NCBI GenBank assembly: GCA_965238225.1
Contig: OZ250183.1
Span: 1,338,264 to 1,402,263, forward strand
Direction of reading: 5' to 3'
Source of the DNA: Gammaproteobacteria bacterium
GTDB taxonomy: Bacteria > Pseudomonadota > Gammaproteobacteria > Eutrophobiales > Eutrophobiaceae
Length of the DNA stretch: 64,000 nucleotides
This document shows positions 430 to 33,154 of the stretch, piece after piece (the stretch's first letter is position 1; each line of letters begins with the position of its first letter). The translations under genes and the position numbers were made by a program. Below the pieces are notes generated by a model that saw only the letters and a list, made by a program, of their open reading frames with translations, ran no database searches and was not told where the DNA came from.

Positions 430-2994
430 TCAAGTCATAAAATCTTCAATAATACCAAATAAAGTAGATTTCTGTATTGGCTTACCAACATGAGTATCAA
501 AACCTGCGACCATACATTTATCAATTTCTTCTTTGATGGCATGAGCCGTTAACGCGATAATCGGCGTTGGCGGGCGGCCATTTTCTGCCTCTAGTACACG
601 TATTGCTCTAGTCGCTTCATGCCCATCCATGATGGGCATCTGGATATCCATCAAAATAAGATTGTAAGTATTATTACGATAAAGTTCTACGCCAATTTTA
701 CCATTCTCTGCTTCATCAATGGTAATGTGGGGAAATTTTTTGAGATAAGTTCTGACTAACAAACGATTATCTGAATTATCTTCAACTAACAATATTTGTT
801 TTTTCTCAACAGGTATTGCATCTATTTCAGAATCGTTTTGTTCACTATTATTAACGTATTCCTCTGGCATCTGATATTTATTTGAAAAAATATACAACAA
901 ATCAGATTGCTTTATTGGTTTAGTTAAATAACCATCTAACCCTAATTCATTAATCCTGTTTATTTGCTGATGCAGAGAAACAGGGTTGAGCATCGCGGTA
1001 ATTACCGGGCCAGAGTCTGATTGACTTGATTTCAGAATTTCCTCAATCTCAGAATCTTTACATTGGAACAAAATTTTATGATCCAGAAATACATACTGAT
1101 ATTTATCCACAGATAAGAATTCTTCAGATTCAATACATTTTGCGCCATAGGTATGAAGTACATTACAAATCTTGGCTCTATTGTATTTATTGCTATCTAA
1201 TACAAGGACTGTTTTATCTTCAAGGGGTTTATCCAGAATCAAGTCATGCCTCGTTGCTGAATTATTGACAGGTAAATTTACAACAAATAAGAATGTACTC
1301 CCCACACCTTCTGCACTTTCTACCCAGATACGACCATTCATCATCTCAACTAAAGATTTAGATATCGTTAGACCTAGACCTGTCCCGCCATATTTACGTG
1401 TTGTTGAAGAATCAGCCTGTGTAAAGCTGGCAAAAATTTCTTGTTGTTTTGCTTCAGGGATACCAACGCCTGTGTCATTTACCGATATCTGCACCTCATC
1501 TGCATTCACATTAGACACCATTACAACAATATGACCGTTTTCTGTGAACTTAATCGCATTGCTAATTAAGTTAAGTACTATTTGTCTAAGTCGTGCTGGA
1601 TCGCCCATCCGTCTCATATCTAATGTCGATTCAAAATTGCTAATTAATTCAGTATGATTTTCTGCTGCCTTAATGGCATAGATTTCAACCGACTCTTCGA
1701 CAACTTCAAGCAAATCAAATGAGATATTTTCTAATACTAACTGTCCTGCTTCAATTTTTGAGAGATCTAATATATCATTTACCAAACTCAATAAGGTATT
1801 CCCTGATTTTTTGAAAATTTTGACATATTTTCCCTGGTCGCCGCTCAATTCTGTATCAGAAAGCAATTCCGCCATACCAATAATAGCCGTAAGAGGCGTT
1901 CGTATTTCATGACTCATACTTGCCAAAAAATCTGATTTCATCAGTGAAGCCTCAAGCGCTTTATCTCTGGCCAAAGCCAATTCTTCGGTCTGTTTTTCCA
2001 CTTGTGATTCAATCACGACATTGCGTTCACTCAATTCCTTTTCACGTAAATCTTTCGCCCTGACCAACGACATTAGCAAAAGCGTTATACCCAACCCAAT
2101 AAAGAGAGCGATATATATCAGTTCCCGATTAATGTCAGACCAATAAACATTCTTTGCTATGGATAATTTAATAGAATAGGACGCAAATTCAAATTGAATT
2201 GATGCGTCATAAATAAAACTGGATATCATAATACCTTTTCGACTGTTGGTCGGCGAAGCATTATAAATTAATTGTCTACCACTTAGACCGGATGATTCAC
2301 TATATAAATCAACTTTCAATGTATCAGGAATCCCGGAGTGCTCAATTAATTTTTCCGGGCTTATCAACAAAGAAAGAATCCCTCGAATTGATTTTTTTGG
2401 TTTTCCATCAATTACTGAGGAATAATCTTCATTGAACATCGCTTTGAATAAGACATAATATTTTCCTGACTTCAGATTGACAATAGAAAGAATAGGATCT
2501 TCTCCTTCGTTTAAATATAAGGATTTTAGAATAGTCTCGTAATCATCAATATCTCTTATATCGTAATCTGCAATAGATTTTTGTGCGTCACGAAATCTAT
2601 GGTATTCATTTTCTAGAGAGGGACTAGAATCTGATTTACCCGAAATTTTTGGTAAGGGGTAGTAATGGATACCTTCTATAAATAGTTTTTGATCCAATAC
2701 CCCTTGAACCATAGGTTGAAATATTTGCTCGCTAAGTGCATTGTTTTCATCATTGAGCGCCTTATTTGCGTCAATGAACGTTGCAAAGCTATTAATAATG
2801 TCGTTACTTACCTGAACATTATGTGCGACGGATTCTCCTATTTTTGAAGACTCAAAACTAAAACTTCTTTTGTTTTCTTCTAAGGCACTATCCCATGCGA
2901 TAAAAACTAATGTAACGCCAAGCGTAAGAGCAGAAAATAAAGTAACAGAATAGATAAGCAACCTTGATGCTTGTTTGTTCTGATTATCAAGCAT
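430..2994 (-). CDS. Hybrid sensor histidine kinase/response regulator. Domains: N-terminal TM, ~270-aa periplasmic domain, TM2, HisKA (SHEIRTPLTAIIGMAELL), HATPase_c, a degenerate receiver-like segment, and a C-terminal canonical receiver.
   Basis: 854-aa ORF. H-box and N/G-boxes (NAIKFTENG...DTGVGI...GGTGLGL) are present. The C-terminal REC reads LLVEDNSDNRLL...ILMDIQMPIMDGHEATRAIR...ALTAHA. Confidence 0.85.
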   Translation of the reverse strand: MLDNQNKQASRLLIYSVTLFSALTLGVTLVFIAWDSALEENKRSFSFESSKIGESVAHNVQVSNDIINSFATFIDANKALNDENNALSEQIFQPMVQGVLDQKLFIEGIHYYPLPKISGKSDSSPSLENEYHRFRDAQKSIADYDIRDIDDYETILKSLYLNEGEDPILSIVNLKSGKYYVLFKAMFNEDYSSVIDGKPKKSIRGILSLLISPEKLIEHSGIPDTLKVDLYSESSGLSGRQLIYNASPTNSRKGIMISSFIYDASIQFEFASYSIKLSIAKNVYWSDINRELIYIALFIGLGITLLLMSLVRAKDLREKELSERNVVIESQVEKQTEELALARDKALEASLMKSDFLASMSHEIRTPLTAIIGMAELLSDTELSGDQGKYVKIFKKSGNTLLSLVNDILDLSKIEAGQLVLENISFDLLEVVEESVEIYAIKAAENHTELISNFESTLDMRRMGDPARLRQIVLNLISNAIKFTENGHIVVMVSNVNADEVQISVNDTGVGIPEAKQQEIFASFTQADSSTTRKYGGTGLGLTISKSLVEMMNGRIWVESAEGVGSTFLFVVNLPVNNSATRHDLILDKPLEDKTVLVLDSNKYNRAKICNVLHTYGAKCIESEEFLSVDKYQYVFLDHKILFQCKDSEIEEILKSSQSDSGPVITAMLNPVSLHQQINRINELGLDGYLTKPIKQSDLLYIFSNKYQMPEEYVNNSEQNDSEIDAIPVEKKQILLVEDNSDNRLLVRTYLKKFPHITIDEAENGKIGVELYRNNTYNLILMDIQMPIMDGHEATRAIRVLEAENGRPPTPIIALTAHAIKEEIDKCMVAGFDTHVGKPIQKSTLFGIIEDFMT

Positions 2995-3009
2995 CGTATA
3001 AACCTAATT

Positions 3010-3315
3010 TTATATATATACAATTTCTATATGAGAAAGGTAATGCGCTAGCTTTTTTATACTTTCATCAATGACCTCTAGCTTGTCTTCCTTTGCATTT
3101 TCTTCAATCTCCGCACCTATTATCCCTATAGCATGAAATCCATAACCACCACTGACACCTTTAAGGTTATGTCCAATCAATTTTAGTGTTTCAAAATCTT
3201 GTTTTTCCATTGCCTGTTCAAGTTTTTCTATATCTCCTTGCCTGTTCTCAAGAAACTCATCAACAATATCTTCCAGATCAATATCTACATTAACAACTAT
3301 TTTCTCATCGCTCAC
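3010..3315 (-). CDS. Stand-alone Hpt (histidine phosphotransfer) domain protein, co-operonic with the hybrid kinase
   Basis: 101 aa with an HNLKGVSGGYGFHAIGIIG Hpt-type motif. It ends 16 nt upstream of the kinase start. Confidence 0.7.
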   Translation of the reverse strand: MSDEKIVVNVDIDLEDIVDEFLENRQGDIEKLEQAMEKQDFETLKLIGHNLKGVSGGYGFHAIGIIGAEIEENAKEDKLEVIDESIKKLAHYLSHIEIVYI

Positions 3316-4134
3316 TTTAAAATACCTCCCAAATTAGACACTAATTTCTTTGATCTGAATGCCTATTTATCTTGCAAATATAGCACAACCTATGCTTTTT
3401 CTGATTGTTTATCTGAGAGAGTATATTCAAGGGAATCTGTTCCGCCATCATAGAGTTCCTTATATTGTGTCATAAAGAAGTTGTTGGTATTCTGAGTATG
3501 GGGATAGAGTGCCGATCCAAAATTTGTAAAATTTTACATTTCAATAATTCTATTTCTGATCGTTCTTTTTTTTCGGAAAAAATTGGATATTTAACTTCAG
3601 ATACTCATCTGCTTCTCTGGAATTACTTTAACTGAGGGTCTTTTCCTGTTGATGTGTCGGAATAAACATTGAAACTAATATCTATGAGATTACTCATGCT
3701 TCTTAGGACTATGCCACTGTTACTGATTTCGTTTGAACGGAAGGGATGGTCATCGGTGCTAGAATATGCCACAAACTTTCATCAAATCTGAAATGTTCTA
3801 CACACTTTATGACAGACTACCACAGTGGTTTTTTTACCATCATAATCTGTGTGACTAAATGGAGGTTCATTATTAACTTTGACTGCAGCCGGGACGGCAT
3901 CTCTGGAGAAAATTTGACCAAACCTAACTTTAACATATACCACAATCATAAATGTATTTACGCAACAAATTCAACTCAGGGTTAGGGACATTAATTGATA
4001 CTATACCTGCTTGGTGGAGTTCGTTTGCTCGTCTATGCGACTGAGAAGGTCTGGCATCCATTAAATCTTTTAAAAAAACCCATATTTCACTCCTAATAAT
4101 TATAATTATATAATAAATACAAAGGTGATGCGTA

Positions 4135-4296
4135 ATGAAAATGATTCTATTTATGCTAGGGATTGGTTGTTATTTATGGGCAGGTTACTCCATTATTCGT
4201 TTTTTATTTATGGTAACTGAGTATGCAGGTTGGCAGTGGATTATTAGCATTATTATTGAAATATATTTGGGCAATTTCTTTGTCTCAAAATCTTAA
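4135..4296 (+). CDS. Hypothetical 53-aa hydrophobic small membrane protein (not in the ORF track because it is under 60 aa)
   Basis: ATG preceded by AAGGTGA 8 nt upstream. Translation is MKMILFMLGIGCYLWAGYSIIRFLFMVTEYAGWQWIISIIIEIYLGNFFVSKS. It sits in a ~1-kb AT-rich gene-poor gap. Confidence 0.2.
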   Translation: MKMILFMLGIGCYLWAGYSIIRFLFMVTEYAGWQWIISIIIEIYLGNFFVSKS

Positions 4297-4336
4297 AAGT
4301 TATAGTTTTCAGCAATCCCCGTCCTGTTCATTGAAA

Positions 4337-11349: not shown

Positions 11350-11634
11350 TTGTGACTACTTTTTTATAACTGCTTTGTTAATTTTCACCAACTTGTATGT
11401 CTTACGCAAGTTCTTGCATGCTACCCATCTCTAAGGCAATTCTGATACGGTGACATGATAAAATATAGCCCAATAATAATAATTACTGCGACAATTATAG
11501 TAACAACAGGTGGTTTTAATAAATTTTCTATTAATATTTTTCTACTTCATCTTTTTTCTCAGGTTCGTCCGTCATTTTTGCTTCCATCGTTTTCACCCCC
11601 CCCATTAATTTTTTATTACCATATCAATAATACT

Positions 11635-12156
11635 TTAAGCTAATTTTTTTGGCTCCATGACCATAACCATCTGCCGACCCTCCATCTTCGGGAATTGTTC
11701 TATATTCCCAAACTTGCCAAGGTCTGCTTCAATTCTCTGCAACATCTTGGTTCCTAATTCCTGATGAACCATTTCACGTCCTCGAAATCTCAGCGTAATT
11801 TTTACTTTATCACCCTGATTTAAGAACTTAATTAAATTACGCAATTTAATTTGATAGTCGCTCTCTTCTGTCCCTGGGCGAATCTTGATTTCCTTCACCT
11901 GAATCTGTTTTTGTTTCTTCTTGGCAACGTGCCTTTTCTTGGTCTGTTCAAAAACGAACTTGCCGTAATCCATGATTCGGCAAACTGGAGGTTCCGCAGT
12001 TGGAACAATTTCAACTAAATCCAGTTCAAATCCATCTGCCATAGCTAAAGCATCTTTTAGAGTTGTTAAACCCACTTGTTCTCCATCCTTATCAATAAGT
12101 CTTATTTCTGGAGATGTTATCTCTCCATTTAGACGCGTCTTTTTATTTACAGCGAT
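11635..12156 (-). CDS. infC: Translation initiation factor IF-3, with a non-AUG (AUC) start
   Basis: The track ORF (GTG at 12075) lacks the IF3 N-domain. The in-frame upstream read [32 protein letters not shown] matches the IF3 N-terminus and is bounded by an in-frame stop at 12160-12162. GGAGG lies 8 nt upstream of ATC at 12156-12154. Confidence 0.8.
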
Positions 12157-12178
12157 TTGTTATTCCTCCGAATTAAAA

Positions 12179-14101: not shown

Positions 14102-14404
14102 GCTACCTCCTTTTCTTAAACAGTGGCGACCTACACAAAGAGTCGCTTAACAAAAGAGCAGTGATACTAAAAATCAAAGGCACTGTATTAAAAAATACTG
14201 TATTAAAATATTTCCCCATACTAATAATTTGTACTAATAAAATCTTAATTTGTACTAATAAAATCTTGTGTTAATAAAATAAGATTTTATAAAGTGCCCG
14301 ATCCTATAATAGAGTTTCGATACTGGCAAGTAAACTTACAAATATATGTCGTGATGTTAGAATTTATTATCATGGACTTACTTGAGGCAGTACTTTGAGG
14401 AATT

Positions 14405-14481
14405 TGGTAGGCGCGATTGGACTCGAACCAACGACCCCCACCATGTCAAGGTGGTGCTCTAACCAGCTGAGCTACGCGCCT
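14405..14481 (-). tRNA. tRNA-Val (anticodon GAC)
   Basis: Minus-strand read AGGCGCGTAGCTCAGCTGGTTAGAGCACCACCTTGACATGGTGGGGGTCGTTGGTTCGAGTCCAATCGCGCCTACCA. Anticodon loop UUGACAU; 7-bp acceptor stem; CCA encoded. Confidence 0.85.
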
Positions 14482-14956: not shown

Positions 14957-15643
14957 CTAGGTACGATATCCCCTAGCGCTTTCGAACAAGTCTGTTATCC
15001 AATATATCTGTGCGCCGATAGCAGCAAATGGTAATAATATCCATGCGACATTAAATACAGCTAAGCCCAAAACGATAATACAGAAGTCTGCACGACTGAG
15101 TTTATGAAATATAAATATGACCCAATCTAGTTTTTTTTCTGGTTTTTTTGCTTGCTTTGCCTGCTCTTCCCTGCTGATAGTTTTTAGATTTCTACTCTTT
15201 CTCGCATAGTATATTAGGTCGACAATATAATCAATCAACGCACCTGCTGCTGCTGCTAATCCTAACCAAAACCAAAACTGCTGCCCGCTTACTTGCACTG
15301 TGCCGTAACCTAATGCAGCAAAGAAACTAGCATCCACGATCCAGTCCACCATATCGTCCAGTTTTGCGCCAAAATCAGAAGACATGTTTTTGACCCTAGC
15401 AACTTCACCATCGCAATTATCAAATACATAACTGGCGACCAATAATAACCCGCCAACAATCCCTGTAATCCAATCACCCTGCATAAAACAGGCAGCACAG
15501 CTTAAGCCTAATAAAAGTGATACAACAGTGATCTGATTTGGGGTGATGGGTATTTTCAGAAGTATGGGGGTCAGTCGATAGGATAGATGTCTTATCAAAG
15601 GGAATATCTGTTCTGGCGCTTCAGGGATGCTCGTGCTGTTCAT
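14957..15643 (-). CDS. CDP-alcohol phosphatidyltransferase family membrane protein (paralog 1)
   Basis: 228 aa with D-x2-DGEVAR-x8-G-x3-D-x3-D (DNCDGEVARVKNMSSDFGAKLDDMVD). Multiple TM segments. Transcribed divergently from the hpnL-like gene. Confidence 0.7.
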   Translation of the reverse strand: MNSTSIPEAPEQIFPLIRHLSYRLTPILLKIPITPNQITVVSLLLGLSCAACFMQGDWITGIVGGLLLVASYVFDNCDGEVARVKNMSSDFGAKLDDMVDWIVDASFFAALGYGTVQVSGQQFWFWLGLAAAAGALIDYIVDLIYYARKSRNLKTISREEQAKQAKKPEKKLDWVIFIFHKLSRADFCIIVLGLAVFNVAWILLPFAAIGAQIYWITDLFESARGYRT

Positions 15644-16999: not shown

Positions 17000-18171
17000 A
17001 TGAATAACTACGAAATCATATTTTATCTGTTGTTATTGATTAATCTCTGCGCGATTGGCTATTTATTATTCGCTAGTTTTTGCATCATTAGGCTTCGAAA
17101 AATCAAAAAAACCCCCATACCTTCTCAAGCTTTACACCGCCTGTCACGATATTTAAACCTATTTGTGGTTTAGAACGCGGCATAGATAAGAATTTACGAT
17201 CATTTTGCGAACAAGATTATCCTGAATACCAAATCATCTTTGGGTTGCATGGAAAAGATGATGCGGCAATTCCTGTGATTGAAAAGATTATCCATGATTA
17301 TCCGCATCTGGATTTAAAAATGGTCGTCGATGCACGGTTACATGGCTCAAACCGTAAGGTCTCCAATCTAATTAATATGTTTCACTTGACCAAATATGAC
17401 ATTCTACTGGTTGCAGACAGTGATATGCATGCCAGTAAACATTACCTGCGCAATATTGTTGCGCCATTTGCCGATACCGCAAACGGTGCTGTCACCTGCC
17501 TTTATTCAGGTCGTGCCGCAGGTAATATCGCTTCAAAACTAAATGCCATGTATATCAATGAATGGTTTCTCCCTTCGGTGCTTATCTCAAATGCGCTGAA
17601 AGATATTAGTTATTGTCTGGGGGCGACGATGGCCATACGCCGTGGAATATTGACTAATTTTGGAGGTTTCAAGGCGCTGGCTGATTATCTGGCTGATGAC
17701 TACATGCTGGGTCAAATGGTCACAAAATGCGGCTATAAAATACATTTATCGCACACGATAGTAGAAAACATGTCCTACGAATCAAGCTATAAATCATTGT
17801 TCTTGCATGAGCTTCGTTGGGCTAGAACACTCAGAGCCGTTGAACCACTGGGCTATCTCGGCACCTTTTTGACCGACGCATTAGTAATAAGTAGCCTGAC
17901 TACATTATTCGCGTTGATATTCACACAACACACATTTTTACCAGCAACGATTTTAGTGACTACGATTACTGCTCGAATTTTTCTACATCTACAGGTAAAA
18001 TCGGTGCTTAGTTTAAGTGGTGTGGATTTATTGCTGCTTATTCCGGCGAGGGATATACTGTCATTTATTATCCGAATAATAAGCTTTACCGTACATTCAT
18101 TTGAATGGAGAAATCGCATATTTTCTGTAGATGATGGCGGTCTGATGCATGAAGATTCAGGAAACCAATGA
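17000..18171 (+). pseudogene. hpnI: HpnI-like family 2/21 (ceramide-glucosyltransferase-like) lipid glycosyltransferase; reading frame interrupted at an A7C5 tract (17105-17116)
   Basis: Frame 2 (ATG at 17000) gives a TM N-terminus MNNYEIIFYLLLLINLCAIGYLLFASFCIIRLRKIKKTP, then stops at 17171. Frame 1 continues …FTPPVTIFKPICGLERGIDKNLRSFCEQDYPEYQIIFGLHGKDD…KVSNLINMF…VADSDM…, which are GT21/HpnI signature blocks, to 18171. One extra base in the A7 or C5 run would fuse the two frames. Confidence 0.55.
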
Positions 18172-18281: not shown

Positions 18282-19703
18282 ATGTTGAAAACATTATTTT
18301 TAAACCCACCCTCCTTTAATGGATTTGACGGTGGTGCTGGGTCTCGTTACCAATGTACACGAGAGGTAAAATCTTTCTGGTATCCAACATGGCTCGCTCA
18401 ACTATCAGCTCTGGTTGAAGGCAGTCGCTTAATCGACGCACCGGCAAGAAATATGTCGCTGGACAAAGTTTTACCTCTAGCAACTGATTATGAATTCCTA
18501 GTGCTGTATACAAGCACACCTTCATTTCTAAACGACGTAAAAATTGCAGAGGCATTCAAACGAGAAAATCCAAAATTACTCATTGGTTTTTGCGGTCCAC
18601 ATGTTGCAGTCAATCCAGATCACACTGTCCTTACTTCTGATGCTATTGATTTTGTCGCGGGGAACGAATTTGATTTCACCATTCAAGAAATCGCTAAAGA
18701 ACAACCTTTAAAAGAAGTCGATGGCATTACCTACAAAAAAAATGGTAAACCAGTTCACAATAAAGACCGTGCATTGATTGAAGATATGGATTCACTGCCT
18801 TGGGTAACTAAAATCTATAAAGAAAATCTGGTCACAGAAGATTACTACAATGGCTACATGCTGCATCCTTACATGTCTTTTTATACTGGCAGAGGTTGCA
18901 AATCTCGTTGTACTTTTTGTCTCTGGCCACAAACTATTTCTGGCCATAACTACCGCACCCGTTCAGTCGATAACATCATTGCAGAATTAATTTATGCAAG
19001 AGATAACTTCCCTGAGGTTAAGGAATTTTTCTTTGATGATGATACGCTAACGGACAATATCGAACATGTAGAGGCATTAGCAAAAAAGATTGGCAAGTTA
19101 GGTATCACTTGGTCTTGCAATGCAAAAGCCAATGTCCCCTATGAAACACTGAAGATAATGAAAGACAATGGTCTGCGCCTTTTACTGGTCGGTTACGAAT
19201 CCGGTAATCAGCAGATATTAATAAACATCAAGAAAGGCATAAGAACAGATATTGCGCGTCAGTTCACCAAAGACTGTCATAGTTTGGGCATCCTCATTCA
19301 CGGAACTTTTATTGTTGGTCTTCCAGGAGAAACAGCGGACACTATTGAAGAATCAATTAAATATGCACAGGAACTAAATCCGCAAACCATCCAAGTGTCA
19401 CTGCCTGCTGCTTATCCTGGAACATTTCTCTACAAACAGGCAATTGAGAATGGTTGGTTAATAGATGACACCACATTGGTAGGCGATAATGGTGTTCAAC
19501 ATTCGGTGTTGAACTATCCACACCTGCCCAGTGATGATATTTTTGAGGCTGTTGATAATTTCTACAAGCGCTTCTATTTCCGTCCGTGGAAAATGGCAAC
19601 ATTATTTTTCGAAATGTGTCAGGATTGGGAAATTATGAAACGTCGCCTTCGTGAAGGCGTGGAATTCTTTAAATTCCTTTTCGTGCGGGAGAGCACAGTC
19701 TGA
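18282..19703 (+). CDS. hpnJ: HpnJ-like B12-binding radical SAM enzyme
   Basis: 473 aa. The N-terminus KTLFLNPPSFNGFDGGAGSRYQ…SFWYPTWLAQ is the characteristic HpnJ start. A CxxxCxxC cluster (GRGCKSRCTFCLWPQ) lies mid-protein. Confidence 0.8.
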   Translation: MLKTLFLNPPSFNGFDGGAGSRYQCTREVKSFWYPTWLAQLSALVEGSRLIDAPARNMSLDKVLPLATDYEFLVLYTSTPSFLNDVKIAEAFKRENPKLLIGFCGPHVAVNPDHTVLTSDAIDFVAGNEFDFTIQEIAKEQPLKEVDGITYKKNGKPVHNKDRALIEDMDSLPWVTKIYKENLVTEDYYNGYMLHPYMSFYTGRGCKSRCTFCLWPQTISGHNYRTRSVDNIIAELIYARDNFPEVKEFFFDDDTLTDNIEHVEALAKKIGKLGITWSCNAKANVPYETLKIMKDNGLRLLLVGYESGNQQILINIKKGIRTDIARQFTKDCHSLGILIHGTFIVGLPGETADTIEESIKYAQELNPQTIQVSLPAAYPGTFLYKQAIENGWLIDDTTLVGDNGVQHSVLNYPHLPSDDIFEAVDNFYKRFYFRPWKMATLFFEMCQDWEIMKRRLREGVEFFKFLFVRESTV

Positions 19704-19708
19704 AAAAA

Positions 19709-20551
19709 TTGATTGTGACAGGCGATGATTTTGGTCTGTCAATCCCCATCAACGAAGCTGTTTCCCAAGCTCATCAAAAAGGCATTCTCACATCAACCAG
19801 TTTGATGGTTTCTGCAACTGAAGCAGATGATGCAATCGCACGAGCCAAGCAGTTGCCAAATCTTAATGTTGGTTTACATCTAGTGCTATCCAATGGTTGT
19901 TCCTGTCTACCGCACAGTGACATTCCTAATCTTGTAAATACTGATGGTGAATTTTCAAATAGGCTTGTCAGTAATGGCATCAAGATATTTTTCAAAGCAA
20001 GCGTCAAGCAGCAATTGAAAGATGAAATCCGCGCACAATTCGAAGCATTTCAAAAAACTGGACTACGCCTTGACCATGTGAATGCGCATAATCATTTTCA
20101 CCTTCATCCTACCGTCTTTGATGCCATCATCGAGATTGGCAAAGATTATGGAATGAATGCTGTCCGAGTCCCTGATGAAAGACCTCTACATGTACTGATA
20201 AATCACCCTAAAGAAAAAATAACGCGATTTGCCATTTGGCTACTCCTCAAGCCATTTATTTTAAGAATGAAAAAGCGACTCATTAAAAATAAAATTAAAT
20301 TTAATGCGAATATTTTTGGTTTGCATCATACCGGGCACATGAATCTTAATACTCTAGCTCGGATACTTCCAAACCTCAAAGATGGCTTGTCAGAAATTTA
20401 TCTGCACCCAGCAACGAAACTATGGGATGACATTGATCCGCTTACAAAAGATTATGAATTTGAAGCAGAATACAAAGCACTCATTCATCCACGAGTAAAA
20501 CGTATCATCGAAAAATTTTCGATTGAGTTAACAACTTTTCAAGAAGCCTAG
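19709..20551 (+). CDS. hpnK: HpnK-like YdjC-family carbohydrate deacetylase
   Basis: 280 aa. MIVTGDDFGLS…GILTSTSLMV…NVGLHLVL is the YdjC/HpnK N-terminal signature. It starts 6 nt after the hpnJ-like stop. Confidence 0.75.
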   Translation: MIVTGDDFGLSIPINEAVSQAHQKGILTSTSLMVSATEADDAIARAKQLPNLNVGLHLVLSNGCSCLPHSDIPNLVNTDGEFSNRLVSNGIKIFFKASVKQQLKDEIRAQFEAFQKTGLRLDHVNAHNHFHLHPTVFDAIIEIGKDYGMNAVRVPDERPLHVLINHPKEKITRFAIWLLLKPFILRMKKRLIKNKIKFNANIFGLHHTGHMNLNTLARILPNLKDGLSEIYLHPATKLWDDIDPLTKDYEFEAEYKALIHPRVKRIIEKFSIELTTFQEA

Positions 20552-20566
20552 GTGGCCTTTTAAATT

Positions 20567-21172
20567 ATGGTTGGAGATTCTTGGACGCATAAAATAGCAC
20601 GGGTTTGTATCTTGCCGCTTGTTAATACGCCTGTCACGCCAAACCATCTGACAACCTTAAGATTAATTACTGGCATAGCTGCTTGTGGTCTATTTGCCAT
20701 AGGAACGACACAGTGGAACTCCTATGGCGGTTTACTATGGCTATTATCTACTTTTCTAGACCGCGCAGATGGTGAGCTGGCTCGCGTCAGCGACAAAACC
20801 AGTCTGTGGGGTCATCAATATGATTATTACTCAGATATGTTTGTCACAGCATTATTCTTTATTGGAATCGGTATTGGCTTAAGAAATACAAGCTGCTGGA
20901 ATATAGAGCTTAGATTTTGGACGATTGTCATGGGCATTTGTGCAGCGACTGGTGTGATTGTTGCTGAAATCCTTGCCGAAAAAATTGATGAGGCGCAAAA
21001 AGATACTGGAAAAAAGGCCTATGCCGGTTTTGCTGGTTTTGATTTTGATGACATAATATATCTCTTCGCGCCTGTTGTTTGGTTAAATCTACACATACCT
21101 TTTCTGATAGGTGCTACAGCAGGCGCGCCAGCATTTGCCTTGCTTACTTGGTATCGCTTCAAGAAACTTTAA
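20567..21172 (+). CDS. CDP-alcohol phosphatidyltransferase family membrane protein (paralog 2)
   Basis: 201 aa. Motif LDRADGELARVSDKTSLWGHQYDYYSD fits D-x2-DG-x2-AR…G-x3-D-x3-D. It shares the N-terminal TPN(Q/H)(I/L)T motif with paralog 1. Confidence 0.65.
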   Translation: MVGDSWTHKIARVCILPLVNTPVTPNHLTTLRLITGIAACGLFAIGTTQWNSYGGLLWLLSTFLDRADGELARVSDKTSLWGHQYDYYSDMFVTALFFIGIGIGLRNTSCWNIELRFWTIVMGICAATGVIVAEILAEKIDEAQKDTGKKAYAGFAGFDFDDIIYLFAPVVWLNLHIPFLIGATAGAPAFALLTWYRFKKL

Positions 21173-31789: not shown

Positions 31790-32740
31790 GTCTCTGGAGA
31801 TCGAGACCTTCTATCTCTTCATCTTCACTCACGCGAAGTCCAATCATCGCATCATTAGAATATAAAAACGCCACAATATAATAGTGAGAGACAGCCACTG
31901 ATTAAAAATTTTGAACCAGGCTAAAAAACGCGCCAATAATACCACCAACGGAATGGATACCAAATACATCCGGTAACCCATCTTACGTTTAAGCGTGCTT
32001 GCAGCCTTGAAACAGCATCCCAGCAAGTGGGCCCGATCAGGCTGACTACAGTCACAACCCAGTGCACTGCTTTTGTCCATTAAAATCCATTAATTATTAA
32101 TTACAGCCATTGCCATACCACAATCAGCAGCCAAACTTAGGCAGGGTTAGTGGTAGATTATAATACTTGGGAAACTTAAATAGGCTAACCTTGCATTGAG
32201 AAACCGTAGCAAAATCAAGTATGTCGCCATGGTATAGGCTCGTCATTTCTTGTAGTCTGACGATCATAATTATTTCATTTCAGGAATTGCAATCAGCTGG
32301 CCATACCAAAACCGCCCCAGAAGCTAATCTGACTATATACATATAAAACCCAGTATTGTTACAAACTTCAAAAATTGCTGATAAAATTTGCGAACCAATA
32401 AAACCAAGCCCGGAATGGTCATAAATAATACTAAAGTGATTTTGTTCAGACAATAAAAGAGTCCTGTGATTCAGTAATGCGATCTAATCCCAAATTCTAG
32501 AACCAATAATGCGAGTTATTCTGTACGATTCATCAAAATGCTGGATTCATCACAAAAACAGTACTCTGAGAGCCATGAAATTGAAATTTGAAGAAATTGC
32601 GCGACAGGTTCTGGATAAACTTCCATCTGATCTTGGCAAAATACAGTCACAATTTGCTTGTCTAAAAATTATTATTAATATACATAACAATAACTTAGGC
32701 AAAAAGTGCGTCATTTATTTTTTTGATGCATTTTAATAAA
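31790..32740 (-). pseudogene. Second, heavily decayed glnK-amtB copy: fragments of glnK 3' half (~32500-32740), amtB N-terminal region (~32250-32440) and amtB C-terminal region (31790-31985) in different frames with internal deletions
   Basis: Minus-strand reads LVLFMTIPGLVLLVRKFYQQFLKFVTILGFICI*, then DGLPDVFGIHSVGGIIGAFF… and …HYYIVAFLYSNDAMIGLRVSEDEEIEGLDLQRH, matching the AmtB DVFGVHGVGGIVG and GLRVxEExExEGLD motifs. FLPK plus a shared 'tttttgcctaag' 12-mer and 'aactcgcat' match glnK. Track ORFs 31638..31898 and 31844..32080 are pieces of this. Confidence 0.45.
32406..32434. repeat. 29-bp direct repeat, copy 2 (aagcccGgaatggtcataaataatactaa)
   Basis: See copy 1. The two copies are 1,280 bp apart in the same orientation, flanking glnK. 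Confidence 0.8.
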
Positions 32741-33154
32741 ACCAATGATGCAAGTGATTTTGTTACAATAAGATCCTGAGAGAGCAATAAAATCTTAAAT
32801 CTGCGTTACAAGCTACTTTCTCTAGAATAGATCTCGTCTCACGAGAAGAATTTGATATCCAGACAGAATTACTCTCTCGCACACGTGCTTTGCTTGAAGA
32901 ATTAGAAAAAAAAACCAGTGTCTTGGAGAAAATTATCTTGGAGAAAACAAAAAAACCATGATCTGCGCAAAAATATCATGATGTTTAAGGTCAGATATTT
33001 AATGAATATTAATTGACATAGCGCCCCTTCATCATATGATGAATACTAAACTATTGGTATTTTTTAAGTAGTATCCTTGGGGATAACTATCTAGAAAAAC
33101 TATAAAAGAGAGGGCTTTTGAGTCTGCAAATCAGCAGATTATCGACGTCAATGG

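Follow-up and report, generated by a model that had tools for sequence, protein, structure and literature searches.

The window analysed here is a stretch of 64,000 nt with 39.5% G+C, in which a group of genes assigned to the modification of hopanoids is flanked by thrS and a tRNA-Val gene at one end and by lptD-surA-pdxA-rsmA at the other. The cluster and its flanks comprise:

14957 to 15643, minus strand: CDP-alcohol phosphatidyltransferase family gene (PF01066), divergent, at the flank of the cluster; same position in L002, L005, L006, L007 and L009
15988 to 16959, plus strand: intact hpnL-like gene for a membrane protein (LPG_synthase_TM / flippase-like; TIGR03476 HpnL, 245.5 bits, cutoff 195.65), syntenic in relatives
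17000 to 18171, plus strand: hpnI, whole gene for the glycosyltransferase of the bacteriohopanetetrol glucosamine pathway, one base short as written; 390 aa once repaired
18282 to 19703, plus strand: hpnJ, intact radical SAM gene (TIGR03471, 753.8 bits)
19709 to 20551, plus strand: hpnK, intact gene for a YdjC-like deacetylase (TIGR03473, 349.5 bits)
20567 to 21172, plus strand: second CDP-alcohol phosphatidyltransferase family gene (PF01066), directly 3' of hpnK and before lptD; same position in L002 to L006

The whole cluster is syntenic in related genomes, and the association of hpnI with hpnJ and hpnK recurs in the same order in L002, L004, L005 and L006. HpnJ is 92-94% identical to its counterparts in relatives. 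The three genes hpnI, hpnK and hpnJ are required for the conversion of BHT into BHT cyclitol ether, and HpnI is the first of them to act (PMC5462960), in agreement with a preliminary description of this DNA that had named HpnI as the committing step of the pathway. Neither shc nor hpnH or hpnG was found within the 64 kb, and the supply of the hopanoid substrate is putative. The two CDP-alcohol phosphatidyltransferase genes bracket hpnL-hpnI-hpnJ-hpnK, an arrangement kept in related MAGs (L002, L004, L005, L006) and a hint that the cluster produces or processes something outside the textbook BHT cyclitol ether route.

Several other features were observed upstream of the cluster. An Rfam match to HPnc0260, a Helicobacter antisense RNA (14305-14443, plus strand; 61.3 bits, gathering score 59), overlaps the tRNA-Val gene (14405-14481, minus strand) on its antisense strand and is probably a false positive driven by the tRNA. 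Before the first canonical start of infC (11635-12159, minus strand), GTG 12075, the frame is open for another 28 codons; this extension is consistent with the known unusual (AUU-type) start and is no lesion. The longest G/C homopolymer of the window, a C8 run at 11596-11603, is located in the spacer just 3' of infC. Between an Hpt-domain gene and glmS, a region of about 1 kb (3334-4336) yielded no ORF with coding potential, no Pfam match and no match to an RNA family.

Within hpnI, the N-terminal and the catalytic parts of the protein are written in different frames. The parts of the gene, all on the plus strand, are:

17000 to 17173, plus strand: upstream reading frame, 57 codons counted from ATG 17000, then TAG; N-terminal transmembrane helix
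17092 to 18171, plus strand: downstream reading frame, 359 stop-free codons with the catalytic domain; first canonical start TTG 17245
17104 to 17110, plus strand: C_AAA_AAA, a heptamer in register with the upstream frame (AUC AAA AAA ACC), as read from the sequence
17105 to 17116, plus strand: A7C5 tract, site of the one-base deficit; relatives have AAAAAGACCCC (K R P) here

Positions 17096-17119 read ...CGA AAA ATC AAA AAA ACC CCC ATA..., in which direct reading places A7 at 17105-17111 and C5 at 17112-17116. The protein of the upstream frame starts MNNYEIIFYLLLLINLCAIGYLLFASFCIIRLRKIKKTPIPSQ..., its residues 4-32 form the hydrophobic window of the N-terminal helix, and its homology to HpnI is limited to about the first 37 codons. 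The preliminary description was correct on the start and the transmembrane N-terminus of this frame, whereas its stop is TAG 17171-17173 and not 17169-17171 as proposed. The last stop of the downstream frame (TAG 17089-17091), its open course to 18171 and its catalytic blocks (FTPPVTIFKPICGLERG...EQDYPEYQIIFGL) are as described there. By contrast, the two frames had been thought to overlap only across 17105-17116, but both are open together over 17092-17170 (79 nt), and the sequence alone therefore does not put the shift in the tract.

Adding one A or one C to the A7C5 tract gives a single ORF of 390 aa, in line with the length of about 390 aa predicted earlier. Independent expression of the downstream frame was considered and rejected, as this frame holds no ATG, GTG or TTG before TTG 17245. 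Public gene callers use this TTG and predict a 308-aa protein (P0013), which is 100% identical to the window. A protein started here lacks profile positions 1-77, the conserved FKPICG block among them, as well as the transmembrane helix, and the 308-aa fragment scores 319.2 bits on TIGR03472 over profile positions 78-371 only.

The repaired 390-aa protein reaches 394.5 bits on the NCBIfam model TIGR03472 (HpnI, cutoff 310), with residues 6-384 aligned to profile positions 3-371 of 373, and likewise matches Glyco_transf_21 and Glyco_tranf_2_3 in Pfam. It contains FKPICG (52-57), DSD (140-142) and ELRWAR (271-276), and the latter two represent the DxD and Q/ExxRW motifs of GT2-type enzymes. On the basis of a full-profile score above the equivalog cutoff and of the adjacent hpnJ and hpnK, the gene is identified from its sequence as HpnI. 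It resembles the GT2/GT21-type HpnI enzymes, which belong to the hpnI-hpnK-hpnJ route by which BHT becomes BHT cyclitol ether, in its match to the full profile, in the DSD and ELRWAR motifs and the N-terminal transmembrane helix of the repaired protein, and in having hpnJ and hpnK directly downstream and an hpnL-like gene upstream. It differs from them in an ORF broken by a one-base deficit, in conserved columns that are altered more often than those of the neighbouring genes, and in a cluster bracketed by two CDP-alcohol phosphatidyltransferase genes. Membership of the family calls for the transmembrane helix and the GT-A domain in one uninterrupted frame; here the frame changes at 17105-17116. 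What is written at this locus is either a frameshifted allele (or pseudogene) or the result of a faulty assembly.

The comparison with orthologous loci, which the preliminary description had suggested, locates the missing base. Seven related MAGs (75-80% amino acid identity) have an intact hpnI in one frame with the same start, and the start codon and the first 34 residues (MGNYEIIFYLLVLISLCAIGYLLFANFCIIELRK) of the window gene align with theirs. At the site, the relatives read ...AAA AGA CCC CAT..., as in L001 (CGC AAA AGC AGA AAA AGA CCC CAT) or, with further differences, in L007 (CGA AAA AAC ATA AAA AGA CCA CAC). In a DNA alignment of 98 columns, comprising the window and the seven related loci, the window has a single gap of one base, which falls in the A run, and no other indels. 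This comparison pins the missing base to the tract, so that the earlier view of an HpnI-like glycosyltransferase split at A7C5 is borne out. Apart from the 308-aa gene call of the window itself, a protein search returned only intact proteins of 397-407 aa with at most 80% identity, a collection of species-representative genomes contained no match above 80% amino acid identity, and none of 109 full-length homologues is interrupted at the site. As the relatives are intact and the window is one base shorter at the tract, the frameshift is lineage-specific and not a conserved recoding event. The uninterrupted A7C5 itself is, judged from this alignment, a lineage-specific product of substitutions in AAAAAGACCCC. 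The affected residue is basic in 91 of the 109 homologues (R in 65, K in 26); repair to A8 would place Asn at residue 38, a residue found there in four of the 109.

Two disrupted homologues came to light in these searches. P0065 (L053, positions 1-1146; NCBI GCA_044240345.1, JAZHCG010796678.1) is a related hpnI whose frame is interrupted by a stop at another place in the gene, where the sequence diverges locally (DEN*TSICEQYYPEY; relatives have DENLRSFCEQDYPEY); either hpnI was possibly disrupted independently here or the contig is in error. In P0068 (L052, positions 1600-3900; ENA ERZ26222911, contig labelled 4x), hpnL and hpnI are split over several frames by small indels outside homopolymers, such as GACCTCACAT against GACCACAT and a duplicated GACTGACTG, which looks like a noisy low-coverage long-read contig and not like biology. 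A recurrent frameshift hotspot, as could be suspected from such truncated homologues, was rejected, because P0068 is a noisy assembly and the stop of P0065 lies elsewhere.

We propose the following course of events. Point substitutions in this lineage would have built the A/C homopolymer tract from the interrupted AAAAAGACCCC, and strand slippage in the tract would then have removed one base, evolutionarily recently. Translation from ATG 17000 would stop after 57 codons and leave the catalytic domain in the -1 frame without a start codon of its own. With the catalytic domain out of frame and startless, the first step of the branch leading from BHT via BHT-glucosamine to the cyclitol ether would be lost or strongly reduced, at a stage when no other gene of the cluster, hpnJ and hpnK included, has been damaged. 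Residual full-length HpnI would be made only through unprogrammed -1 slippage of tRNA-Lys on C_AAA_AAA or through an extra A added by RNA polymerase.

That hpnI carries such a real, recent, mostly inactivating and lineage-specific deletion of one base is the reading that we favour, and to which we give an even chance. Runs of at least seven A/T or at least five C/G account for 0.5% of the coding bases in the window, and A7C5 is the sole composite tract of its size and kind in the 64 kb; such runs being rare in coding bases, the indel is of the slippage type, biological or technical, and not a random one. A technical slip in assembly or basecalling would imply a true tract of A8C5 or A7C6 and an intact, normally expressed hpnI, the frameshift existing in the consensus only, which we regard as quite conceivable if on the doubtful side. 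The deficit amounts to exactly one base in a 12-nt double homopolymer. Homopolymer indels are the main residual error class of long-read consensus sequences, in which a deficit of one homopolymer base is the typical appearance of an error, and this counts against a real deletion, as does the source, a single contig of 1,722,049 bases (1.72 Mb) on which P0013 lies and whose relatives are all MAGs; the genome is missing from the collection of species representatives and is therefore probably a recent long-read MAG. L052, with its label of 4x, illustrates how hpnI and hpnL break in a low-coverage long-read assembly. An artefact is further favoured by an ORF that is otherwise perfect, by the intact state of hpnJ, hpnK, hpnL and both flanking genes, and by the occurrence among homologues of the Asn that repair would create. 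An overall acceleration of HpnI on the window branch, for which we looked in a relative-rate test, is absent (unique-change ratio 1.26, compared to 1.53 in HpnK and 1.49 in HpnL), which likewise points to an intact gene. The known role of hpnJ and hpnK depends on the product of HpnI, yet both are fully intact and conserved, a state that fits a functional hpnI as well as a very recent loss. On the other hand, 41 other long runs are in frame inside intact ORFs (26 A/T runs of at least seven and 15 C/G runs of at least five); nine of them have a length of 8, and these, together with an in-frame A9 in a ubiK-like gene (32906-32914), ought to break down earlier than an A7 or a C5. A codon-score scan of the approximately 54 genes in the 64 kb found no other frame-split gene, and for ten large housekeeping genes the profile match covers the full length. 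The artefact is also at odds with the substitutions in HpnI, which is off-consensus at eight of the 131 columns conserved in at least 95% of the 109 homologues (A131T, R144H, V145A, F185Y, V213I, T294A, G343D, G365V; R144H and V145A adjoin DSD), compared to none of 94 such columns in HpnK and one of 96 in HpnL (together 1/190; Fisher p = 0.004), an excess that varies with the threshold (p = 0.32 for invariant columns, 0.04 at 90% conservation). We interpret this threshold-dependent pattern, seen in the conserved-column test only, as a possible sign of relaxed constraint specific to HpnI. Its HMM score of 394.5 bits is below those of all nine homologues tested (400-428 bits). If the deletion is real, it is probably recent, since no second lesion occurs in the 359 downstream and 37 homologous upstream codons; an old pseudogene was rejected by the same absence across these 396 codons, and we infer, as a rough estimate, a neutral divergence of no more than about 2% since inactivation.

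The preliminary description had offered four explanations, of which an inactivating mutation and a sequencing indel in the homopolymer remain the main candidates, whereas phase variation is unsupported, and transcriptional or ribosomal slippage is mechanistically possible and unconserved. Phase variation would make hpnI a contingency switch, whose tract length flips often in the population and turns glycosylation of the hopanoid head group on and off. The position of HpnI as first enzyme of its branch (PMC5462960) would suit such a switch, and the tract, at codons 36-39, is close to the 5' end of the gene, a region in which poly(A)/poly(T) tracts are reportedly enriched. A polymorphic A6/A7 tract is known from inlA of Listeria monocytogenes, where the A7 allele is in frame, the A6 allele frameshifted and A2GA4 stable (PMC2831843). 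Both are surface-related genes with a short A run close to the 5' end and with one frameshifted allele, and the relatives of the window carry an interrupted version of the tract, like the stable one of inlA (PMC2831843). In inlA, however, strain polymorphism and reversion were measured, whereas hpnI of the window is a single sequence to which no variant was found. The inlA rates (about 5.5e-7 for A6 to A7 and about 3.9e-8 for A7 to A6, with less than 3e-10 for the interrupted tract; PMC2831843) are far below those of classical phase variation, and A7 and C5 are likewise short of the hypermutable length of contingency loci. None of the seven relatives has the uninterrupted tract or the frameshift, no other coding tract in the window reaches contingency length, and alternative tract lengths were found neither by two DNA scans of JGI metagenome contigs that allowed for variable tract length nor in the protein collection (single-member clusters). 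The on/off switch proposed earlier is therefore not upheld, and we consider phase variation very improbable.

Rescue of a real lesion by slippage is somewhat more plausible than such a switch, and still unlikely. In this case, -1 ribosomal frameshifting on C_AAA_AAA or insertion of an A by RNA polymerase would supply a useful fraction of full-length HpnI, and the gene would be attenuated and still under selection, which would account for the open frame of 359 codons and for hpnJ and hpnK being intact. Restoring the frame takes a shift of -1, for which the register of the heptamer is the correct one; both routes would give the identical product ...RKIKKNPHTF..., i.e. RKIKKNPHTFSSFTPPV. For the same heptamer in the same register (C-AAA-AAA), ribosomal -1 frameshifting of 25-60% was shown in E. 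coli, where the A6 transcripts were homogeneous (Belfield et al., PMC1851650), and transcription insertions are known to increase exponentially with run length in A/T runs (PMC5574713). The attB1 site of Gateway pDEST17, from which the former figure derives, has the heptamer, its zero-frame register and the -1 direction in common with hpnI (PMC1851650), but it is vector sequence under T7 overexpression in E. coli and is followed by GCA GGC, whereas the candidate site of the window is followed by ACC CCC. Programmed -1 frameshifting in dnaX and IS elements (A_AAA_AAG or A_AAA_AAC with stimulators) likewise uses a slippery run of lysine codons to enter a long ORF at -1. The window heptamer (17104-17110), by contrast, starts with C, so that in terms of X_XXY_YYZ the A-site re-pairs perfectly while the P-site has a mismatch at the first position. 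It is, moreover, accompanied neither by a downstream structure (fold of 17112-17200: MFE -13.1 kcal/mol, z = -0.96, equalled by 35 of 200 shuffles) nor by an upstream element other than a three-base AGG (17090-17092), 11 nt before the heptamer. Conservation among orthologues is the defining criterion for recoding clusters, and large surveys class most such frame transitions as pseudogenes or errors, counting only the conserved ones as recoding (PMC3711429); the relatives and the 109 homologues are single-frame, and neither position nor direction of the frameshift is conserved. At the level of transcription, the closest parallels are slippage-prone 9A/9T genes and endosymbiont pseudogenes with proposed transcriptional rescue, in which one additional A in the mRNA restores a broken ORF (PMC1088944). 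Coding regions typically show selection against A/T runs from about 9 nt (PMC1088944), and the A7 at the frame junction is a weak site by this measure, with expected slippage correspondingly low; a transcriptome-wide survey found no case in which a transcription error restored the frame (PMC5574713). By analogy, leaky expression may possibly yield some full-length HpnI. A stronger version of this idea, which holds that the base is truly missing, that its loss is tolerated since decoding of hpnI now passes through the tract (by a -1 slip of tRNA-Lys or insertion of an A by RNA polymerase, possibly with occasional reversion in the DNA), and that hpnI has become a lineage-specific gene of new origin, recoded or switchable, which tunes glycosylation of the hopanoid head group, seems to us equally unlikely.

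A different kind of disruption was observed in the ubiK-like (Pfam BMFP) gene at 32560-32961 (plus strand), which is broken in frame by an AT-rich insert of about 138 nt with several stops, at roughly 32680-32815. Once the insert is spliced out, the joined ORF consists of 26 N-terminal and 56 C-terminal codons, and the BMFP match grows from positions 31-77 to positions 6-77 of 77 (65.8 bits). A second copy of the insert is absent from the window. This disruption cannot be a basecalling error, and we count it among the arguments for a real deletion in hpnI.

The lesion in hpnI is an ordinary single-base lesion or an assembly slip and not a conserved genetic switch. An HpnI gene whose frame is shifted at a short homopolymer belongs to a well-known kind and represents neither a new mechanism nor anything that would surprise a specialist; its closest analogies are the inlA A6/A7 alleles and the C-AAA-AAA site of pDEST17. 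For annotation, the locus should be labelled as a frameshifted hpnI and not as a 308-aa glycosyltransferase, and a prediction of BHT cyclitol ether, a lipid biomarker, for this organism should be held back pending a check of the reads. Should the heptamer rescue expression, hpnI would provide a natural "savior" frameshift at a sequence whose characterisation has until now been confined to a cloning vector. A real lesion would make the gene a snapshot of the first step in the loss of a hopanoid branch, taken while hpnJ and hpnK are still intact.
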